From the NCBI GenBank assembly GCA_947595235.1, contig CANQEP010000001.1, forward strand, positions 7,451-71,450: 64,000 nt of DNA. The letters are read 5' to 3'. This DNA is from an uncultured Clostridia bacterium. Its GTDB lineage: Bacteria; Bacillota; Clostridia; Christensenellales; UBA1242. The notes beneath the pieces are model-generated. The model had not been told where the DNA came from, did no database searches, and worked only from the letters and a program-made list of their open reading frames with translations. The position numbers and the translations under genes were made by a program. Below are positions 23,711 through 61,594 of the stretch, piece by piece; position 1 is the first letter of the stretch; the number at the start of each line of letters is the position of its first letter.

Positions 23711-23923
23711 ATGAATTTAGCAAAGAAAGTTGGAGAAAACATAAAGTCAGCGCGAAAGGCCAAGGGTTTAACGCAGAAAGAGGTTGCCAAGATTTTATTC
23801 ATGACTCAACAGCAATACAGCCGATTTGAGAACGGCATCTTTGAACTCAACTACCAGCAACTTCTTGACATCTGCAAAATCCTCGACATCACCCCCAACG
23901 AGATCTTTGACTTCGGCATATAA
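23711..23923 (+). CDS. XRE-family helix-turn-helix transcriptional regulator (70 aa)
   Basis: MNLAKKVGENIKSARKAKGLTQKEVAKILFMTQQQYSRFENG... is the classic Cro/C1-type HTH. Divergent from paralog 1. No obvious SD. Confidence 0.8.
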   Translation: MNLAKKVGENIKSARKAKGLTQKEVAKILFMTQQQYSRFENGIFELNYQQLLDICKILDITPNEIFDFGI

Positions 23924-23930
23924 TCTTTTA

Positions 23931-24180
23931 GTTGCGCGCGACCAATCGCGCGCCCCAACCTCCACGCACCTAAGCCATATTTTTCACAAATGGCTTCGAA
24001 AGAGAAACGCGGGCAACCTATTTTGTTGCGAGCCATTTTTATGGCTCGCTCCTCACTCACCGCATATAAACGAACTTTAAGCGAAGAGCATCGAAAAGAA
24101 AAGGTCGCGACCATAAAGGTCAGCGGCCTTTTGTTTTCTTCCCTCTTCATCTTAAATTTCGCTTATCTGCTTCTTTATAC
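23931..24180 (+). repeat. Copy A (full length) of an unrecognised modular structured repeat, candidate ncRNA
   Basis: GTTGCG + hairpin GCGCGCGA-CCAA-TCGCGCGC, junction, module X (53 nt, 23966-24018, identical to 59266-59318), hairpin GCGAGCCAT-TTTT-ATGGCTCGC, second junction, module Y (24066-24161, matches RC of 59671-59768), tail CTTATCTGCT. Confidence 0.5.
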
Positions 24181-24238: not shown

Positions 24239-24367
24239 TTTTTCGGGGCAAGATTTGCGCCTATAACAAGGCATAAAAAAATTTCCAGGCAGGAGTTTAT
24301 ATGAAATAAATGACTGTCTGGAAATTTTTTTATAACGCAGTTAGAGGCGCAAAGATTGCCCCGAAAA
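24239..24367 (-). terminator. Nested hairpin terminator region after rpsI
   Basis: Outer ~22-bp stem TTTTCGGGGCAAGATTTGCGCCT / AGGCGCAAAGATTGCCCCGAAAA encloses an inner hairpin TTTCCAGGCAG...CTGTCTGGAAA flanked by A7 and T7 (bidirectional). Confidence 0.6.
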
Positions 24368-53733: not shown

Positions 53734-55137
53734 ATGAGAAAAACAAAGATAGTTTGCACCATTGGTCCAGCGTGCGAAGACAAAGAAACACTAAAAAAGA
53801 TGATACTTGCGGGCATGAACGTTGCAAGGTTCAACCTAAGCCACGGCACCCACGCCTCTCACCACGCCATGATAGAAAATCTCAAAAAGGCGCGAAGTGA
53901 ACTTGGCGTTCCCGTTGCCATAATGATAGACACCAAAGGCCCCGAAATAAGGATAAAGCAATTCGAAAAAGGCTCGGTCAATCTTGTTAAGGGTCAAAAC
54001 TTTTCTCTCACAACAAGAAACGTTCTTGGCAACGAGAATGGAGTTAGCGTGACCCTCCCCTCTCTCACAAAAATTGTTTCGGCGGGCGACTTTATACTTC
54101 TAAATGACGGCCTCATAAAGATAAAGGTTCAAGAAGTTAAGGGTCAAGACGTGCTGTGCAAGGTTGAGGTTGGTGGAACACTCTCAAACAACAAGAGTAT
54201 CAACATTCCGGGCGTGAGCCTTGACGTCCCCTACCTTTCAGATGTCGACAAAGCCGACTTGCTCTTTGGCATTGACGAGGGCGCCGACATCTTTGCCATT
54301 TCCTTTGTAAGTAGTGCAAAAGATGTTATGGACGTTAGAAAGTTCCTCGCAAAGAACGGATGCACTTCTGCCATGATTTGCTCAAAAATCGAGAGCCGAA
54401 AAGGTGTTAACAACATGGAAGAGATTGTTGACGCGTCCGACAGCGTCATGGTTGCTCGTGGCGACCTTGGGGTTGAGATTGAGTTCGAAAGAATCCCATA
54501 TGTTCAAAAGAAGTTAATAGCCCTTGCACTCCATGAAGGCAAGAACGTTATAACCGCGACAGAGATGCTTGAAAGCATGATACATAACATTCGTCCAACG
54601 CGCGCCGAAATAAGCGACGTTGCCAACGCGGTCTTCGACTCTTCAAGCGCGATAATGCTCTCGGGCGAGACCTCTGCGGGGCAATATCCCGTTTTGAGCG
54701 TTCAAACAATGGCAAAGATTGCCGAGAGCACCGAAGCGACAATTGAGTATAACAAGCCACTCGACTTCGACTACTCAAAGGACATAAGTTCCTCAATTGG
54801 CTACGCATCGTGCGAACTTGCCCGAAGCCTTGGAGCAAGCGCAATAATAACTGCAACAACAACGGGTTATTCGGCAAAGAGCGTCAGCCGATTTAGGCCA
54901 ATCATGCCAATTCTTGCTTGCACTCCAAACAAAAATGTCTATAACCAACTTGCAGTCTTGTGGGGGGTCGTTCCAATTTTGGATAACCCCTACCCCGACA
55001 CCGACAGCCTTCTTAACGGAACAAGAGAGCGCGCCCTTGCCCTCAAACTTATTCGCCATGGCGACACCGTTGTTCAAACGGGCTCAGTCGTCACTGGTGG
55101 GACGGGCAGCGACCTTCTTTATGTAAAAAAAGTCTAA
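53734..55137 (+). CDS. pyk: Pyruvate kinase
   Basis: 467 aa. MRKTKIVCTIGPA, NVARFNLSHG, MVARGDLGVEI. Confidence 0.95.
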   Translation: MRKTKIVCTIGPACEDKETLKKMILAGMNVARFNLSHGTHASHHAMIENLKKARSELGVPVAIMIDTKGPEIRIKQFEKGSVNLVKGQNFSLTTRNVLGNENGVSVTLPSLTKIVSAGDFILLNDGLIKIKVQEVKGQDVLCKVEVGGTLSNNKSINIPGVSLDVPYLSDVDKADLLFGIDEGADIFAISFVSSAKDVMDVRKFLAKNGCTSAMICSKIESRKGVNNMEEIVDASDSVMVARGDLGVEIEFERIPYVQKKLIALALHEGKNVITATEMLESMIHNIRPTRAEISDVANAVFDSSSAIMLSGETSAGQYPVLSVQTMAKIAESTEATIEYNKPLDFDYSKDISSSIGYASCELARSLGASAIITATTTGYSAKSVSRFRPIMPILACTPNKNVYNQLAVLWGVVPILDNPYPDTDSLLNGTRERALALKLIRHGDTVVQTGSVVTGGTGSDLLYVKKV

Positions 55138-55175
55138 TGAAAGAGAAAAAGTCAAGCAGTTGCTTGACTTTTTTG

Positions 55176-55802
55176 TTACTTCGCCGATTCAAAGTAGGCA
55201 GTTGGGTCAACGAGTTTGTCCGCCTCATAGAGTTCGTAGTGAAGGTGAATACCGTCGCCCTTTTCGGTTATGTTCGACGACACCGAACCAATCTCTTGCC
55301 CCTTAACAACCGTGTCGCCCGCCTTGACAAACACCTCGTCTGCCAAACTTCTATAGACGCTGACAAGGTCATTTGAGTGCCTTATTGTAACGACCATGCC
55401 GTCCATCATTGAAGGTTCAACCTTTTCCACCACTCCGTCAAAGACGGCAACAACTTTTGCGCCCGCAGCCGCTTGAAAGTCCACGCCTTGGTGGGTGATG
55501 TAGTCGCCACTGGTCTTGTCTTCAAGCAAAAAGTCCTCGGCGTAGCCCTTGCTTATAACTCCATTTATAACGGGGAACGCAAACTCAATGACCTTATCGG
55601 TGTCAGTTGGAATGGTTGGAACATTTTGCTCTTCGCTTGATGGTATGTCGGGCAAAACTGGGGTTTCCTCTTCCCCATGGTTAACAAAGGTCAGCGCCGT
55701 CAAAGTGACCATTGTTATAACAAGAACAACGCACACGCAGACCGCTATTGCGTAGGTGTTGCGCTTTAAAAACAACCAAACTTTTCTAAAAAACTTTTTC
55801 AT
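55176..55802 (-). CDS. M23-family metallopeptidase, membrane-anchored
   Basis: ATG 55802 follows GGAGG. TM anchor, then HQGVDF and IHLHYEL (the HxxxD / HxH motifs of LytM/M23). Confidence 0.8.
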   Translation of the reverse strand: MKKFFRKVWLFLKRNTYAIAVCVCVVLVITMVTLTALTFVNHGEEETPVLPDIPSSEEQNVPTIPTDTDKVIEFAFPVINGVISKGYAEDFLLEDKTSGDYITHQGVDFQAAAGAKVVAVFDGVVEKVEPSMMDGMVVTIRHSNDLVSVYRSLADEVFVKAGDTVVKGQEIGSVSSNITEKGDGIHLHYELYEADKLVDPTAYFESAK

Positions 55803-55858
55803 AAACAACCTCCAAACAACCAAATACTTCACACAAAATTAGATTTTTATACAAAAAT

Positions 55859-56281
55859 TTAGTAACTTCCATAAATTATTGGGCTTGCAACAACAATGTC
55901 GCTCTCTCGAATTGCAATCTGCACATTGTTTTTCGACGATGAATTGACATATTTCAGCCGTGGTGAAACCCCTTCAATCATCAAGGTTTCGCCAACAATG
56001 TACCTTTCACTGATGTTAAGCCCCAATTTTTCAACAATTCTGTTGAGCGCTTCAAGGTCCTTTTCAATGAAAATGCACTCGCCAACCACCTTTTCGCCGA
56101 GTTTGTACTCAACAAAGTTGTTCACTCTTTGGTCCTCAACAACAAACCCGAGGTCTGTGGAAAAGTATGCATTGCCCTCGTCTTTTTTTACATTAAGAAT
56201 ATCGAAAAGCCCCTCGCCCGAGAGTGCACAGACCACCGCCAAAACAAGTATTGGAATGAACAAAAGCAAAAATCTTTTCAT
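55859..56281 (-). CDS. Secreted/anchored hypothetical protein
   Basis: Likely start MKRFLLLFIPILVLAVVCALSG (56281). No family recognised. Confidence 0.45.
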   Translation of the reverse strand: MKRFLLLFIPILVLAVVCALSGEGLFDILNVKKDEGNAYFSTDLGFVVEDQRVNNFVEYKLGEKVVGECIFIEKDLEALNRIVEKLGLNISERYIVGETLMIEGVSPRLKYVNSSSKNNVQIAIRESDIVVASPIIYGSY

Positions 56282-56326
56282 AAAAAAAGCACCCTTAAAG
56301 ATGCTTGACAAAAACAGAAAAATTAT

Positions 56327-57488
56327 TCACAAAAGTTTGTCCATATATCCAAGCGATGAAAGAAGGTGCATTGTTGAGGGCGTGTGATAGAAGTCGGGCG
56401 CAAGCGCAAAGCAAATTTCAACTTGACGCGCCTTTAAACCATATTTTTTCAGCGGGTTTATCTTGTTGTCTATGCAAGAGACAAGTGAAAAAATCTTTGA
56501 AAGCGCCTTGTCAAAGACCGACGCAAGATAGGGATATTTGCCCTTCAAGTTGTTTATGGCGTCTCCGCCGAAAAAGAGGTTCGACCCCGCCAGTTTCTTT
56601 ATAACCAAACTTGGACTGAGTTTGAAGGTCCTTGACAAAAGGTCAATGTGCCGACTTGGGTTCATGCTCCCCTCAACTGCCGAAGAGGAATAAAAGCAAG
56701 AGTACGCATTGATGACAAGTTTCAGCGATGCCACTTCCATTTCCAAGTAGTCTGCGTCGCGTTTTAACATGCACAGCCTTTCAACAATAGCCCTGTCTCC
56801 CCCAAAAAAGAACTTGGTTTGCCCAAAGTAACTCATCGCTTGCCCCAGCCTTATGAGAGTCCAGATGTTGAGCGAGTTCTTCTCGCTTGGACTTGACGCG
56901 CGCGACTTTATGTAGGTTTGGAGAGTGCGCTTTAAAAAGTTTTTCATCTTCTCGCAGTGCTTTACTTGATAAACTTGCTCTGCAACAATGTCATCAAACA
57001 AAGCAATGTACTTCGAACTCAAAAAATACGACTGCAACTCGCTATATGGGTTTTCTGAGAGCGAAACAAAGATATATTCGGGCTCGGCGGTGTCAAAAAA
57101 ACCATACTCCACCCCATCGAAAAGGCGCGCGAACCTTGAAAAAGTGAAGTCAAGAAAGTTCCCGACGGGATATATCGCAAGTGGCGTTTCGCACGAGTAG
57201 GCGTGATACTTGGCAAGGGATATCGCAATTTCACTGCCATAGCCAACAACAAGTTCTTCGCCACAATTTTCCATGTGCTCAGCCTCAAATACCTTCTTTG
57301 AATGTGACATTTTTTGAAATTAGATTTTTGAGTTTTTGCGGAGGATGGTCTTTGTCAAAGATTATCAAGACGCTTTTGTGCGGACTGGAGTTTATGAACT
57401 TTGCAAGCAAGTTTAGGGCATCATAACAGACCTCAACCTTCTTTGTTGAGAGAGAGTGCACTTCTTGGCACGCGCAAATTTCTTCCAT
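56327..57488 (-). pseudogene. Split gene: 67-aa and 327-aa ORFs separated by a +1 frameshift in an A6 run
   Basis: ORFs 57285..57488 and 56327..57310 overlap by 26 nt. Deleting one A of the A6 run (57310-57315) fuses them in frame (...KNLISK-MSHSKKVFEAEH...). VLIIFDK and VVGYGSEIAISLAKY loosely recall the DHQS/Fe-ADH-like GGGSxxDxAK fold. Confidence 0.4.
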
Positions 57489-57576
57489 AAAATAAATATA
57501 GCACGCAAAATAGTTGTTTTATGCGTGCCAAAAATTTGGTTTTTGTTAAAAATTGAAAAAAACTGCAAAAATATGT

Positions 57577-58965
57577 CTAATTTTCATTTGCGACTTGACC
57601 TTCTTGCTCATTTGCAGTTGTCAAGGCCTCTTGCCCGCCCGAAAGTTTCATCTCTTTTTTTGCCTTAACCATACGAATAATGCTGTCCACCGTTGAAACA
57701 ATAAAGCCTTGCACAATAGTTAAGTAGTATGTGAGAAGTCTCCACGCCAGCAGTCCAAGAACAACATTTGCTTGGTCAACGCCAAGTAGCATCTCGCCAC
57801 TGAAAAGGAACATGAACGAAAGTTCCATCATTCCCGTTCCACCAGGTAGCGGGATGACCACCGATGCCATTTGGCAAACAATGAACTTGGTCATGCAAAT
57901 AAGTAACAAACTTAGGGTATTGACCGCCCCCGTCACGGTTGACGGAGTGAGCGCCATAACAACGGCAAAAGGAATTGCAAAATATGAAAGAACATCGATA
58001 AGCCCAAAGAATATGCAGGCAAAGAGCGTGCCCTTGTTCTTTCGAAGGTACTTCATGGAGTTTTGGTATTCAAGCACTTGGCTCATAAACTTGTTATAGG
58101 TCTTTCTGTAGTCCTTCACAATTCGCAATTTGTAGCCAAGCCTAACGATGCGCCTAACAAGAGTACGTCCAACAATCTTGCCACTGCCAATAAGAATGAA
58201 CAAAACGCTTGTGAGCGCAGTGAATATCAGCCCCACATAAGCAACAATCTTAAAGAGCGTGAACATGAGGTTCAAAAGTGGCGAAGAAATTGGAATGAAA
58301 GGCACGCCAAAAATGAGGAACGCCAAGATAACAAAGGTGTAGATGAGGTTGTAGATAATGAGTTTTATAATTGGAATGCTGGTTGCAATCCCGGGCGAGA
58401 CTCCCGACCTTGTGAGGTTGAGGATTTGCGACGGCTGACCGCCGACCGAGAACGGGGTTATTGCATCAAAATACTTGCCCACCGAACTGACTTTGTAACT
58501 CACAAAAATTCTCTTTTTGCCCGTGGACTTTTTGATAAGGCAAAAGAACATCATGGTGTCGGCAAAGAACATGAGCAAAAATAGTCCCAACCCAAGAAGT
58601 AGCCACCAAAGTTTGCTCCCCTGCCTTGAAATTATCTCAGAAATAGAAACGCCATCCGTGTCTTTCAAGAAAGAGTTGATAATGACCGCCATAACAACAA
58701 TGTTTAGCGCAAAGAAAATGAGGTTCATTATAATGCTTCGTTTTTTCTTCTTTGGCTTTTCGGTCTCTATTGCCTCTTGCAATCTTTCACGGGCAATGCT
58801 TTCGTCAACAAGCGCGTCGTCAAGTTTGTCATCAAAAACAGATATCTGCCCTTCAATGACATTGTTTTCGCTCTTGTTCTCTTCTTTTTCATGAAAAACG
58901 GGTGCCTCTTTTGGCTTAGGCACTCCGTCAATAGTCAGTTGTTCATTTTCTTTCTTTTTTGCCAC
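57577..58965 (-). CDS. Flippase-like (UPF0104 / MprF-TM-like) integral membrane protein
   Basis: ~8 TM segments, acidic N-terminal region, GGQPSQILNL loop. The track start 59004 (TTG) lies inside a strong promoter, so GTG 58965 or a later start is more likely. Confidence 0.6.
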   Translation of the reverse strand: MAKKKENEQLTIDGVPKPKEAPVFHEKEENKSENNVIEGQISVFDDKLDDALVDESIARERLQEAIETEKPKKKKRSIIMNLIFFALNIVVMAVIINSFLKDTDGVSISEIISRQGSKLWWLLLGLGLFLLMFFADTMMFFCLIKKSTGKKRIFVSYKVSSVGKYFDAITPFSVGGQPSQILNLTRSGVSPGIATSIPIIKLIIYNLIYTFVILAFLIFGVPFIPISSPLLNLMFTLFKIVAYVGLIFTALTSVLFILIGSGKIVGRTLVRRIVRLGYKLRIVKDYRKTYNKFMSQVLEYQNSMKYLRKNKGTLFACIFFGLIDVLSYFAIPFAVVMALTPSTVTGAVNTLSLLLICMTKFIVCQMASVVIPLPGGTGMMELSFMFLFSGEMLLGVDQANVVLGLLAWRLLTYYLTIVQGFIVSTVDSIIRMVKAKKEMKLSGGQEALTTANEQEGQVANEN

Positions 58966-58988
58966 TTGCTTTCTTCTTATACTAAAAT

Positions 58989-59017
58989 ATAATACCAAAG
59001 GCAAAAAAATGTGTCAA
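58989..59017 (-). promoter_or_regulatory. Strong sigma-A-type promoter for the flippase-like gene
   Basis: Minus strand: TTGACA (59017-12), 17 nt, TATTAT (58994-89). Confidence 0.6.
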
Positions 59018-59160
59018 TTATTTTAGCCATTGTTTACTTTAATGCATAACCTTTACTCTTATTCCTCTCTCCTTGCCTCCCACAAGAAGTTGATGCAAAA
59101 TTATTGCAAAAGTTATATTATATTGCCCAATTGTGGCACAAAATAAGTTTCCCACTCAAA

Positions 59161-59230
59161 GTAAAGGGTCCCAACAAGGTGAGAGTGCCGAAGTTCGTGG
59201 GGACCCCTTTACTTCGGGGGCACTCTTTTT
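59161..59230 (+). other. Degenerate reverse copy of motif M with interleaved stems and a T-run (terminator-like)
   Basis: GTAAAGGGTCCC (59161-72) pairs with GGGGACCCCTTTAC (59199-212). AGAGTGCCGAAG (59182-93) pairs with CTTCGGGGGCACTCT (59211-25). Followed by TTTTT. A possible promoter TTGATG-17-TTATAT lies at 59090-59118. Confidence 0.35.
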
Positions 59231-59418
59231 GTTGCGACTCGCTTACGAGTCGCTCCAACCTCACCGCACCTAAGCCATATTTTTCACAAATGGCTTCGAA
59301 AGAGAAACGCGGGCAACCAAAAAGGTTTGCCCGCATTTCTTTTTCTTTGCCCTTTATAAAAACTATGTCTTATCTGCTCCTTCGCGTTTTCAAATATAGC
59401 GGTTCAAAGGGAAAGAAG
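59231..59418 (+). repeat. Copy B+ of the modular structured repeat (H1-J-X-tail)
   Basis: GTTGCG + hairpin GCGACTCG-CTTA-CGAGTCGC, junction CCTCACCGCA, module X (59266-59318 identical to 23966-24018), hairpin GCGGGCAA-N10-TTGCCCGC, tail CTTATCTGCT...CGGTTCAAAGGGAAAGAAG. Confidence 0.5.
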
Positions 59419-59480
59419 TTGATATTATTTATATATATTTTCCCTAAACTTATATCTCAAATCTCTTGCGTCCTAACCAA

Positions 59481-59528
59481 GTGCCCCCTCCCACGGGGGA
59501 AAGGTGGTGCCTTCGGCACCAAAAGGGG
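59481..59528 (+). repeat. Motif M copy 1 (two-hairpin 48-nt element)
   Basis: GTGCCCCC-TCCCAC-GGGGGAAAGGTGGTGCCTTCGGCACCAAAAGGGG. Hairpin 1 is C-run/G-run, hairpin 2 is GGTGC/GCACC. Confidence 0.45.
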
Positions 59529-59539
59529 TAATTATTTCA

Positions 59540-59710
59540 TCAACTTTTTAATGTTGACTTTGATATTAAAACCACTATTGAGTAGAACCGCCAAAGTGCG
59601 ACACTTGAAATAAGTATCCTCTTCTTTCCCTTTGAACCGATTTGTTCGAAGACACAAAGGAGCAGATAAGCGAAATTTAAGATGAAGAGCGAAGAAAAGA
59701 GAACCACCAT
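59540..59710 (-). CDS. Speculative 56-aa hydrophobic peptide inside repeat copy B'
   Basis: The ATG 59710 lies inside the hairpin arm ATGGTGGTTC. Product MVVLFSSLFILNFAYLLLCVFEQIGSKGKKRILISS.... Shares FSSLFILNFAYLLL with the copy A peptide. No SD. Confidence 0.2.
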   Translation of the reverse strand: MVVLFSSLFILNFAYLLLCVFEQIGSKGKKRILISSVALWRFYSIVVLISKSTLKS

Positions 59711-59808
59711 AACACTATTGCTGTATGGTGGTTCTCTTTTCAAAGCCCTTCGCTTAAAGTTCGTTTATGTGCGGCGAAGTTTGGAGCGACTCGCAAGCGA
59801 GCCGCAAC
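59621..59808 (-). repeat. Copy B' of the modular structured repeat (H1-J-Y-tail), inverted relative to B+
   Basis: Minus strand: GTTGCG + hairpin GCGGCTCG-CTTG-CGAGTCGC (one G-T pair), junction, module Y (matches 24066-24161), hairpin GAACCACCAT...ATGGTGGTTC, tail ending CGGTTCAAAGGGAAAGAAG (perfect 19-bp inverted repeat with 59400-59418). Confidence 0.5.
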
Positions 59809-59815
59809 AAAAAAA

Positions 59816-59864
59816 GTTCCCCACTGTCGATGGGGAAAGGTGGTGCCTTTAGCACCAAAAGGGG
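59816..59864 (+). repeat. Motif M copy 2
   Basis: GTTCCCCA-CTGTCGA-TGGGGAAAGGTGGTGCCTTTAGCACCAAAAGGGG. On the minus strand its complement ends as hairpin CCCCA..TGGGG + AACTTTTTTT directly before copy B'. Confidence 0.45.
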
Positions 59865-59944
59865 AGGTTAAATATCAACTTTTTATGTTTTTTTATTTTT
59901 TAGGAAGAACTTTGACTTGAAAAAATCTATACCTTTAATCCTTC

Positions 59945-59976
59945 AAAATAAAAAGAGGATACTTTATCTCAGTATC
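59945..59976 (-). terminator. Intrinsic terminator of paralog 2
   Basis: Minus strand: GATACT-GAGATAA-AGTATC followed by CTCTTTTTATTTT, immediately after motif M copy 3. Confidence 0.6.
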
Positions 59977-59977
59977 T

Positions 59978-60025
59978 CCCCTTTTGGTACTTACGTACCA
60001 CCTTTCCCCATCATCAGTGGGGCAC
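59978..60025 (-). repeat. Motif M copy 3, in the 3' UTR of paralog 2
   Basis: Minus strand: GTGCCCCA-CTGATGA-TGGGGAAAGGTGGTAC-GTAA-GTACCAAAAGGGG. Hairpin 2 covaries (GGTAC/GTACC versus GGTGC/GCACC in copies 1 and 2). Confidence 0.5.
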
Positions 60026-60058
60026 TTAAAGTAGGTGCGCGCGACAAGTGGCTCGCAA

Positions 60059-61471
60059 CTAAATCGATAGGTGCAAAGCCGGACGCACCCCTCCGTTCCC
60101 GTAATCGACAGAAATGCGGCTGAGGCCCCCAAGGTTGTCTACGTCACAGGCATTATAAGCCGTCCAGCCCGCCGAACGGAGCCACCAGTTGCACGTCCCT
60201 GTCCTATAGTTCGTCGTGTAACTAGTATACATATAACAATAATTACTTAATGCAAAGTCTGTCGGAGAACATATCCTTGATGCGTAACCATTCCCTACGT
60301 TAAAGTCCTCAGCAAACATGTCGTGACCCATTTCGTAATATGTCTTGCAGTATACATAGTCCTCTGTCGATTCTCCAGTCCACGAACTTGGTGCACTATT
60401 ATATTCTTTTGTTATTCCATTCTTGTTTTTCGTTAGTGCTATTATTTCTCTCTCATTCTCATCAAATGCTGTTTCGTAAAATTCGTCTCTTAGCCATGTT
60501 TGCAGTTCAGAACCTTTCCAGTTATTCCCTGCACTTGTTGTTGGATTGAATCTTATGTAACTTGTCAATGCCAACTCACTCAACAACTCTATATTCTCGG
60601 TCCCACTCTGCCATGCGTCGTAGTTCAATATATACCACTTTATAGGCTCAACCTTGAACCAAACCGCTGTTCCAGTTGCTTTGACTGTTGTCCCATTCTT
60701 GTATGTGTATGACGAACCCGAACTATATCTATAACTACTTCCCCTTGCATATAGTTGTCCGTCAGTATACTCATACGCATCCCATACTTGCGAATCACGA
60801 ATGGTATATGTTTTTACCACTTTCTTTCCAGAATACCAATTCTCAAGTTGGTCATTTAAGTCATCCCCAACATATGTTTGTGGATACGAGCCAAAGTACA
60901 TGGTTCTTAGTTTAACCGTAGACAAAACCCCATCATATGTTCCCCCCATGGTCTCCTCTTCACCCATGACATATAGTGGGACATAATAATCAACTATATT
61001 TCCATCCACAACACTTGTTCCGTCAATGGTGAGGTTGCCACCCTCTTCAACATAGATGGCGGGACCACCTTTCTCGGCAGTGTTGTTGAGTATGTTCCCG
61101 CCATTTATAATGACCTTTCCACCATTTTCTATATATATTGCTCCGCCATACATGGCACGACAGTTCTTTATTGTTCCCCCATTCATGGTAAATGTTGCTT
61201 TGTTAGAAACATAGACCGCCCCACCATAAATATTTTTATGGTTCTCTATGGTTCCACCAGTCATTATATATGTTGCACCCTCTTCAAGGTATATTGCTCC
61301 ACCTTTTTGGCTTTTGTTGGCTGAACTCGCTCCGCTCTCATCCGCAAGAAAGTTCCTTGTGTCCAGTTTTCTTTCCTCATTTATTGCCAACGGCAAAACA
61401 ACCCCAAAGCAAATGGCAATTATAATTGCAAATGGAATAACAAAACCAAATATCCTCTTTAATTTATTCAC
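60059..61471 (-). CDS. Signal-anchored surface protein: Pmp-like beta-helix repeats plus a C-terminal WWLRS...VRPAL domain (paralog 2)
   Basis: Best start is GTG 61471 (GGGGG 7 nt upstream), giving NKLKRIFGFVIPFAIIIAICFGVVLPL, collinear with the paralog 1 N-terminus. Blocks SQKGGAIYL, YGGAVYV, ATFTMNGGTI, FGSYPQTYVG, WFKVEPIKWYILNY, CSPTDFA, WWLRSAG, GVRPALHLSI. Confidence 0.75.
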   Translation of the reverse strand: MNKLKRIFGFVIPFAIIIAICFGVVLPLAINEERKLDTRNFLADESGASSANKSQKGGAIYLEEGATYIMTGGTIENHKNIYGGAVYVSNKATFTMNGGTIKNCRAMYGGAIYIENGGKVIINGGNILNNTAEKGGPAIYVEEGGNLTIDGTSVVDGNIVDYYVPLYVMGEEETMGGTYDGVLSTVKLRTMYFGSYPQTYVGDDLNDQLENWYSGKKVVKTYTIRDSQVWDAYEYTDGQLYARGSSYRYSSGSSYTYKNGTTVKATGTAVWFKVEPIKWYILNYDAWQSGTENIELLSELALTSYIRFNPTTSAGNNWKGSELQTWLRDEFYETAFDENEREIIALTKNKNGITKEYNSAPSSWTGESTEDYVYCKTYYEMGHDMFAEDFNVGNGYASRICSPTDFALSNYCYMYTSYTTNYRTGTCNWWLRSAGWTAYNACDVDNLGGLSRISVDYGNGGVRPALHLSI

Positions 61472-61566
61472 TCCACAACCCCCTATTGGCAAGGTATTTG
61501 CAAGAGCGCATAATAAAAACACTCAGCGCTTGCACCCCGCCAAAATTTTCACTTTTTTCGCACAAT

Positions 61567-61594
61567 ATGATACCCCCCCCCATATTAAAGTCAA
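61567..61594 (-). promoter_or_regulatory. Promoter of paralog 2 with a G9 homopolymer in the spacer
   Basis: Minus strand: TTGACT (61594-89) - TTAATAT GGGGGGGGG (G9 = 61581-61573) - TATCAT (61572-67). Spacer is 16 nt, of which 9 are the homopolymer. Confidence 0.55.

Follow-up and report, generated by a model that had tools for sequence, protein, structure and literature searches.

A mosaic of palindromic repeats between a flippase-like gene and a DUF6273 gene in an uncultured Clostridia bacterium

Here, we describe a cluster of palindromic repeats in a 64,000-nt stretch of DNA from an uncultured Clostridia bacterium (contig CANQEP010000001.1 of assembly GCA_947595235.1; this whole stretch is called the window, and all coordinates count from its first letter). 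The window is a housekeeping stretch of chromosome, in which Pfam scans recognise DNA polymerase III alpha, a class I tRNA synthetase, RF-1, UvrC, MurB, MurC, PGK, TIM, CTP synthase and pyruvate kinase. The cluster lies inside a 1,053-bp gap bounded by the start of a flippase-like gene on one side and by the stop codon of a DUF6273 surface-protein gene (paralog 2) on the other. An earlier note on this DNA had described two truncated repeat copies converging on a 202-bp core, and had left three options for them, namely an invertible segment (inverton), a foldback element or a long-hairpin RNA. The foldback of two converging repeat copies holds up, whereas the invertible promoter switch has gained no positive support, and the layout points to a mosaic of palindromic modules, some with relatives in Dialister.

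The gap appears to be free of conventional genes. The earlier note saw no convincing protein gene in 59005-60058, and we agree, given that the longest open reading frame (ORF) in the gap (59104-59613, TTG start, 169 aa) passes through the repeats and has no Pfam family. A decayed gene was considered and rejected on the strength of this ORF and of a tblastn search of the gap, which found no trace of the XRE/HTH gene that precedes a further copy of the repeat at 23.9 kb (copy A1, described below). A known RNA family was rejected as well: Rfam 15 gives no match at gathering score anywhere in the window, and a permissive scan of 58900-60150 returns just generic microRNA-hairpin matches, far below threshold. 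No tRNA or transfer-messenger RNA (tmRNA) gene was found in the window. The gap and the two genes that bound it are laid out as follows.

57577-58965, minus strand: flippase-like gene, LPG_synthase_TM (PF03706), 462 aa, with a GTG start at 58965
58989-59017, minus strand: the flippase-like gene's own promoter as called by promoter scan, TTGACA-17 nt-TG-TATTAT, matching 11/12 consensus positions, ~25 nt upstream of the GTG at 58965
59156-59231, plus strand: left boundary module, a nested hairpin (-22 kcal/mol) followed by TTTTT, resembling a plus-strand intrinsic terminator
59226-59418, plus strand: repeat unit B+, made of TTTTGTTGCG, hairpin 1 (59233-59252), CGCTCC..CCGCA, hairpin X and a tail ending in CGGTTCAAAGGGAAAGAAG (59400-59418)
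59266-59377, both strands: long hairpin X, ~50-bp stem, -43.6 (plus) and -54.2 kcal/mol (minus), z = -7 to -8
59419-59620, no strand: asymmetric core between the two 19-mers, 202 bp, made of 62 nt, then M1, then 90 nt
59474-59532, plus strand: motif M copy 1 (M1), AGTGCCCCC-loop-GGGGGAAAGGTGGTGCC-loop-GGCACCAAAAGGGG, 59.2 bits and E = 2e-15 with covariance model R1
59554-59582, plus strand: promoter-like box, TTGACT with a poor -10 (TATTGA/ATTGAG), not called by the promoter scan
59621-59813, minus strand: repeat unit B', inverted in orientation, with the architecture of B+ and hairpin Y
59662-59772, in B' (minus strand): long hairpin Y, -54.9 kcal/mol, z = -11
59806-59868, plus strand: motif M copy 2 (M2), the right end of the palindrome, R1 50.6 bits
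59837-59808, minus strand: terminator-like site in M2, its first hairpin followed by T7, facing paralog 2
59926-59982, minus strand: weak hairpin with UUUUUAUUUU downstream of M3, a candidate terminator for paralog 2, -10.1 kcal/mol, z = -0.18 and hence no better than shuffled sequence
59974-60031, minus strand: motif M copy 3 (M3), R1 47.1 bits, directly after the paralog 2 stop (60059) and forming a second inverted pair with M2
60059-61522, minus strand: DUF6273 surface-protein paralog 2 (Pfam), with its stop codon at 60059

The inverted repeat and its core

The coordinates first proposed for the arms, the 19-mer and the core were all borne out. The outer arms (59231-59270 against the reverse complement of 59769-59808) are identical at 30 of 40 positions and the inner arms (59369-59418 against the reverse complement of 59621-59670) at 43 of 50, in line with their proposed homology. 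The perfect inverted 19-mer CGGTTCAAAGGGAAAGAAG is found at 59400-59418 and 59621-59639, and the 202-bp core that it encloses, 59419-59620, does hold motif M copy 1 (59481-59530) and the box TTGACTTTGATAT (59554-59566). The relationship between the two sides is far beyond chance, with blastn joining 59217-59430 and 59822-59608 in one alignment of 218 columns at 73% identity (E = 2e-15), and the symmetry reaches beyond the arms originally described, to 59204-59835, by way of a CCCC-loop-GGGG hairpin on each side. The 98-nt middles, X and Y, had been taken as non-homologous. They are instead 49% identical without gaps and are variants of one long hairpin, with a common stem base (GCACMTAAR/YTTATCTGC) and a difference that lies mainly in the apical stem.

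The two sides represent copies of a repeat, B, which is also present as a tandem pair at 23924-24176, giving four units in two intergenic regions, and each B unit is itself a hairpin with a stem of ~50 bp. A unit begins with TTTTGTTGCG and a short hairpin (part 1), whose sequence is different in all four copies with the pairing retained. There follow CGCTCC..CCGCA and a ~110-nt hairpin of type X or Y (parts 2 and 3; -44 to -55 kcal/mol, z = -7 to -11), and finally a tail, CTTATCTGCTYCTT...CGGTTCAAAGGGAAAGAAG, that contains the 11-mer GGTTCAAAGGG (part 4). Two such units of ~190 bp stand head-to-head around the asymmetric core and are capped on the left by a hairpin of reverse-complement M (59204-59224) and on the right by a complete M2 (59806-59868), so that the order between the caps is B+, the core with M1, and B'. 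The left cap is the last hairpin of the left boundary module, CCCC-loop-GGGG-CACT, which matches the first hairpin of a reverse-complement M when aligned with M2.

A perfect 19-bp inverted repeat around an asymmetric segment of ~200 bp resembles, in its dimensions, the known Firmicute switches, and the earlier suggestion of an inverton can be put as follows: a recombinase encoded elsewhere would flip the 202-bp core between the 19-mers and thereby re-orient a promoter or a terminator, as in the cwpV and flgB switches of Clostridioides difficile. The -35-like box in the core, with its resemblance to the paralog-2 promoter, and the surface and envelope genes next door, one of them with a G9 tract in the promoter, argue in the same direction. 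However, the inverted repeat represents the most strongly conserved part of a unit that is also present in non-inverted form, as the tandem at 23.9 kb, and a perfect run of this length is unexceptional. In simulations a run of at least 19 arises with P ~0.14 when 218 positions are 73% identical and 0.21 when 50 positions are 84% identical, and since arms this similar give such a run in ~14% of cases, the 19-mer is no evidence of homogenisation by recombination.

The box fares little better as a promoter. Its likeness to the -35 region of paralog 2 stands but is marginal, with the common 13-mer matching twice in the window and 3 of 100 shuffles equalling that count, and its status as a promoter is doubtful: the -10, already described as weak, is poor (TATTGA/ATTGAG) and appears unusable, and the promoter scan is silent there. 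A flipped promoter would, moreover, have to cross the X hairpin and the left boundary hairpin (at least three strong hairpins lie between the flippase-like gene and the core) in order to reach a gene that already has a near-consensus promoter of the extended -10 type (TTGACA-17-TGnTATTAT, 59017-58989; 11/12). Finally, the statement that no recombinase is encoded in the window is supported, as Pfam scans of its ORFs gave housekeeping families only (with 25 of 56 families shown in one of them) and no recombinase or transposase domain. An invertible promoter is therefore unsupported rather than refuted, and we regard a flipping core as highly improbable.

The paralog-2 promoter-like site itself (61567-61594, minus strand) reads TTGACT-TTAATAT-GGGGGGGGG-TATCAT, with the G9 run inside a 16-nt spacer. 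A run of nine G inside a promoter spacer is the classic layout of slipped-strand phase variation of a surface protein.

Relatives of repeat B and motif M

The second locus of repeat B holds two units in tandem.

23924-24018, plus strand: repeat copy A1, truncated in the apical loop of hairpin X, with 88% identity to 59224-59318 and beginning at the stop codon of an XRE/HTH gene
24019-24176, plus strand: repeat copy A2, of Y type, in tandem with A1 and 78% identical to the reverse complement of 59656-59789

The B copies are thus 78-88% identical as DNA, in comparison with 44% protein identity for the DUF6273 paralogs that adjoin the two loci, which indicates that the repeats date from well after the gene duplication and spread on their own. 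A segmental duplication that carried the repeats along with the paralogs was rejected for this difference and because the repeats occupy different positions relative to the genes. Counting the X and Y variants of B together with M, there are seven units across the two intergenic gaps.

Two observations concern the neighbourhood of the tandem pair. The 70-aa XRE/HTH_3 regulator gene (23711-23923, plus strand) is divergent from DUF6273 paralog 1, and A1 starts immediately at its stop codon. Between A2 and the rpsI-rplM genes there is a 128-bp near-perfect palindrome (24240-24367; outer arms TTTTCGGGGCAAGATTTGCGCC..., inner arms AAATTTCCAGGCAG...) that is probably a bidirectional terminator.

The tandem pair bears on the foldback option in its strictest form, in which 59204-59866 would be one non-autonomous transposon, a miniature inverted-repeat transposable element (MITE) with terminal inverted repeats of ~200 bp that moves as a whole. 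In favour of it, complementarity between the end arms is 89% over 45 nt, the unit is non-coding and it is located at a rearrangement breakpoint (see below). Against it, A1 and A2 are the only further copies and consist of single or tandem arms instead of the whole unit, no target-site duplication or other direct repeat flanks 59204 and 59866, no transposase is found nearby, and the plasmid, phage and viral contig collections gave no match. A mobile-element origin was rejected on the last of these grounds, and a single foldback MITE seems to us quite unlikely. For repeat B, the pattern TTTTGTTGCGN{12,18}CGCTCCN{6,9}CCGCA was run against 185,579 species genomes, which do not include the source genome, and gave 15 single matches. 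These come from unrelated taxa and are attributed to chance, and in the two that were inspected (a Lachnospiraceae MAG (metagenome-assembled genome) and a Ruminococcaceae isolate) the flanks are not B-like.

Motif M is found well beyond the window. Covariance model R1 finds three copies in the 64 kb, all within 59474-60031 and so in one gap, and the 11-mer GGTTCAAAGGG, the core of CGGTTCAAAGGGAAAGAAG, occurs exactly twice in the window against 0.02 expected. Running the exact gapped M pattern (24 specified bases) against metagenome contigs revealed a family on at least 120 human-gut contigs, with no match in viral contigs, and every neighbouring protein that could be named belongs to Dialister (D. 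succinatiphilus, D. hominis or uncultured Dialister species). There, M is the right-hand module of a palindromic element of ~160 nt, extended to ~230 nt in copies that contain a 68-nt insert module. The element runs in the order GGAAATGCA-CCCC, a reverse-complement-M-like module, an asymmetric centre, M and TGCATTTCC. It is flanked on both sides by GC-rich hairpins followed by GGTTGTATGGTTTTCC, plus 10-nt-periodic GGTTCARAGG arrays. One sample has eight M loci on seven contigs at similar coverage (16-20x), among the matches listed, which points to many copies per Dialister genome. The 11-mer is also abundant, with 159 occurrences in 972 kb of Dialister loci against ~0.5 expected (~300-fold enriched), and in the same loci GGTTCAGAGG occurs 221 times and GGTTCAAAGG 172 times.

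The genes around M in Dialister are ordinary ones (homoserine O-succinyltransferase, PGI, Mfd, UDP-glucose dehydrogenase, S4). Among 980 ORFs clustered from within 2.5 kb of M at 120 loci there is no transposase, recombinase, RAYT, TnpA, TnpB or integrase, and a protein consistently placed beside M was rejected, as the clusters consist of repeat-derived pseudo-ORFs and housekeeping genes. Rfam gives nothing at the M positions of 12 Dialister loci, and a literature search by sequence strings and by Dialister and MITE keywords found nothing relevant. Dialister intergenic regions are crowded with uncatalogued mosaic repeats (loci L025-L144, for example L028:2655-2965, L049 and L043). At one locus, L025:8061-8218 compared with L033 from a different sample, a 68-nt hairpin module is inserted in one M-element hairpin, leaving 117 vs 185 nt upstream of M, and this difference between samples suggests ongoing gain or loss of modules.

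The Dialister loci also bear on the idea of a flipping core. In the repeats of Dialister, the 19-mer core GGTTCAAAGGG recurs as a generic motif of arrays, which weakens the case for it as a recombination site, and in four Dialister loci the centre between reverse-complement M and M was never flipped in 8-10 further assemblies each beyond the reference, a weak argument as it comes from assembly consensus only.

The relationship between the window and Dialister is limited to M and GGTTCAAAGGG, the only sequences common to both. The Dialister closing stem (GGAAATGCA-CCCC / GGGG-TGCATTTCC) and the centre loops (CTCATAAG or TAACTTAAG) are absent around all three M copies in the window. With polarity and modules in common and with the closing stem and centre motifs absent, the window structure is best described as a diverged relative and not as a strict member of the family. 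Even so limited, the occurrence of a ~50-nt module and an 11-mer, nearly letter for letter, in Dialister repeats and in an unrelated Clostridia-like MAG suggests either that a non-autonomous element has spread horizontally or that a binding site is conserved.

Synteny and transcription across the gap

Looked up by exact protein identity, genes of the window led to no other assembly of this organism on record. The closest homologue of the flippase-like protein is 78% identical, and the closest named relatives are MAGs labelled 'Clostridia bacterium'. In seven relatives (65-78% flippase-protein identity) a gene of ~265-300 aa lies 140-215 bp upstream of the flippase-like gene, and where the contigs reach far enough the order is RNase R, SmpB, tmRNA and then this gene, with the tmRNA confirmed by Rfam in three. 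In the window, this neighbourhood is replaced by the repeat cluster, the DUF6273 gene and a gene of 734 aa. Neither B nor M was found in the nine relative loci searched. Given the short upstream gap in the seven relatives and the lack of B and M, the cluster is lineage-specific and marks a synteny or rearrangement breakpoint, here beside the tmRNA region of the relatives. As the gene order of the relatives differs at the cluster site, there is no true empty site among them.

The flank on the flippase side has also been rearranged. Compared with four relatives (L002, L005, L008 and L146), 53734-59004 has pyruvate kinase inverted and lacks the ATP_bind_3 (tilS-like) gene, the 402-aa neighbour of the relatives is 327 aa in the window, and upstream of the flippase-like gene the ssrA/smpB/RNase R block is missing.

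The predicted folds of the cluster are extreme, with -316 kcal/mol on the plus strand (z = -19) and -359 on the minus strand (z = -31), and raise the third option of the earlier note, a structured non-coding RNA gene in which the ~600-nt foldback is transcribed and would serve, for instance, as an antisense RNA, a scaffold or a substrate of RNase III. Folding is better on the minus (gene) strand, both for the whole structure and for the X hairpin (-54 vs -44 kcal/mol), hinting at G-U pairs there. However, any DNA palindrome yields such folds on both strands, and the mismatches in the arms and hairpins are mostly transversions (50), compared with 9 (plus strand) and 18 (minus strand) that are compatible with G-U, and show no clear strand bias, a pattern that appears to fit DNA palindromes better than selected RNA. 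In the 28 M-elements aligned with RNAalifold, the inner pairs of the second hairpin do covary (G-C in 19 vs A-U in 9 sequences), and overall the covariation is negligible because the arms are nearly invariant, with a covariation term of just -0.81 kcal/mol. Selection at the RNA level was rejected on this term and on the unconvincing strand-bias test. In addition, the promoter scan finds no convincing internal promoter, terminator-like hairpins at both entrances should keep outside transcription from entering, and the Rfam matches are the sub-threshold, generic ones described above. We therefore hold a dedicated RNA gene to be very unlikely.

The entrances themselves suggest a different role. 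Both boundaries are called by scan as intrinsic terminators facing inward-bound transcription, at 59204-59220 with a T-run on the plus strand and at 59837-59817 with T7 on the minus strand. The plus-strand terminator-like region extends over 59181-59231, and on the minus strand the terminator-like regions are 59837-59808 and the one after M3. In Dialister, the gene 3' of M is directed toward it in 48 of 66 cases and M lies between divergent genes in 6 of 66, as far as a crude gene call on loci that are not fully independent can tell. From the boundary terminators, the Dialister orientation count and the flippase-like gene's own promoter, we infer that the cluster, if it acts at all, would serve as an insulator that separates transcription of the DUF6273 gene from that of the flippase-like gene.

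We consider it probable that 59204-59866 is a lineage-specific mosaic of non-coding palindromic modules, similar to repetitive extragenic palindromic (REP) sequences and bacterial interspersed mosaic elements (BIMEs) or to MITEs, and that it serves as a transcription insulator. The cluster fills the gap at the synteny breakpoint, and its modules would have arrived by repeat spread or recombination and not as a dedicated regulatory device. The inverted geometry would then be a by-product of two copies landing in opposite ways. Its most plausible role would be to block transcription entering from both sides, such that the flippase-like gene, with its own promoter, would be shielded from the upstream DUF6273 gene.

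Several points weigh against this interpretation. All three M copies in the window are in one gap, and local duplication fits them as well as dispersal does. We only infer mobility, as neither a target-site duplication nor an empty site nor an autonomous partner was found. The insulator role depends on hairpin-plus-T-run patterns and on the crude orientation count over loci that are not fully independent, and for two of the short hairpins the predicted fold is matched by shuffled sequence (z = -0.2 and -1.2). Nor does the mosaic account for the letter-for-letter sharing of M between Dialister and a Clostridia-like MAG.

A more speculative proposal would cover that sharing, and we consider it unlikely. 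M and GGTTCAAAGGG would be recognised in trans, by a mobilising enzyme or by a conserved protein that binds nucleic acids, and this machinery would spread non-autonomous palindromic elements of a new family between Clostridia and Negativicutes (Dialister). The head-to-head copies would be recombinogenic or invertible and would have driven the loss of the ssrA neighbourhood and the inversion of pyruvate kinase.

At the left edge of the cluster, 59090-59231 (plus strand) has a promoter-like TTGATG-18-TATATT, with a strong nested hairpin and U5 ~65 nt further on. The stretch could encode a small plus-strand RNA of ~105 nt, divergent from the flippase-like gene, or simply contain the boundary terminator, as judged from the sequence.

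Comparison with known systems

Invertible switches of the type found by PhaseFinder, such as cwpV and flgB of C. difficile with RecV, have a ~200-bp segment, inverted repeats of ~20 bp and adjoining cell-envelope genes in common with the window. They differ in that the window has no recombinase, that its inverted repeats are embedded in 190-bp repeat copies which are tandem elsewhere, and that the gene to be regulated already has its own promoter downstream of several hairpins. An inverted repeat with a promoter-like box, as collected by PhaseFinder-style annotation, can stem from dispersed palindromic repeats in head-to-head orientation, and read evidence is needed before it is annotated as a switch.

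The inverted pairs of DNA uptake sequences and uptake signal sequences (DUS/USS) that form terminators are also short, conserved and over-represented motifs, as are GGTTCAAAGGG and M, and are often found at gene ends. The Dialister motifs, in contrast, occur in 10-nt-periodic tandem arrays and inside long palindromes, and not as isolated 9-12-mers.

MITEs of the Correia/NEMIS, RUP, BOX and ERIC types are closer. They are non-coding, 100-300 bp long and gene-adjacent, have terminal inverted repeats and long hairpins, and can supply terminators or promoters. The window structure likewise has terminal inverted repeats, no coding capacity and a length under about 700 bp, and the strain-polymorphic presence of modules in these MITEs is comparable to that of the 68-nt module in Dialister. 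The window structure differs in being a composite of at least five modules instead of one unit, and in that no target-site duplication, cognate insertion sequence with matching ends or empty-site evidence was found here.

Enterobacterial REP sequences and BIMEs are short, imperfect and strictly extragenic palindromes with interchangeable module types, which form clusters of alternating orientation and favour gene 3' ends over divergent promoters, and their terminator and mRNA-stabilising effects are documented. They have stems of 10-15 bp compared with 50 bp in the window and no sequence similarity to it. Their GTAG-type 5' tetranucleotide is not recognised here, and no RAYT (Y1 transposase) is encoded in the window or among the ORFs within 2.5 kb of M at 120 loci. 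The layout, however, is the same in the window and in Dialister, with imperfect extragenic palindromes, several module types and alternating orientation, and the high dispersed copy number of REP sequences is matched by M in Dialister. The structure in the window is of a known kind, that of mosaic extragenic palindromic repeats and MITE-like elements.

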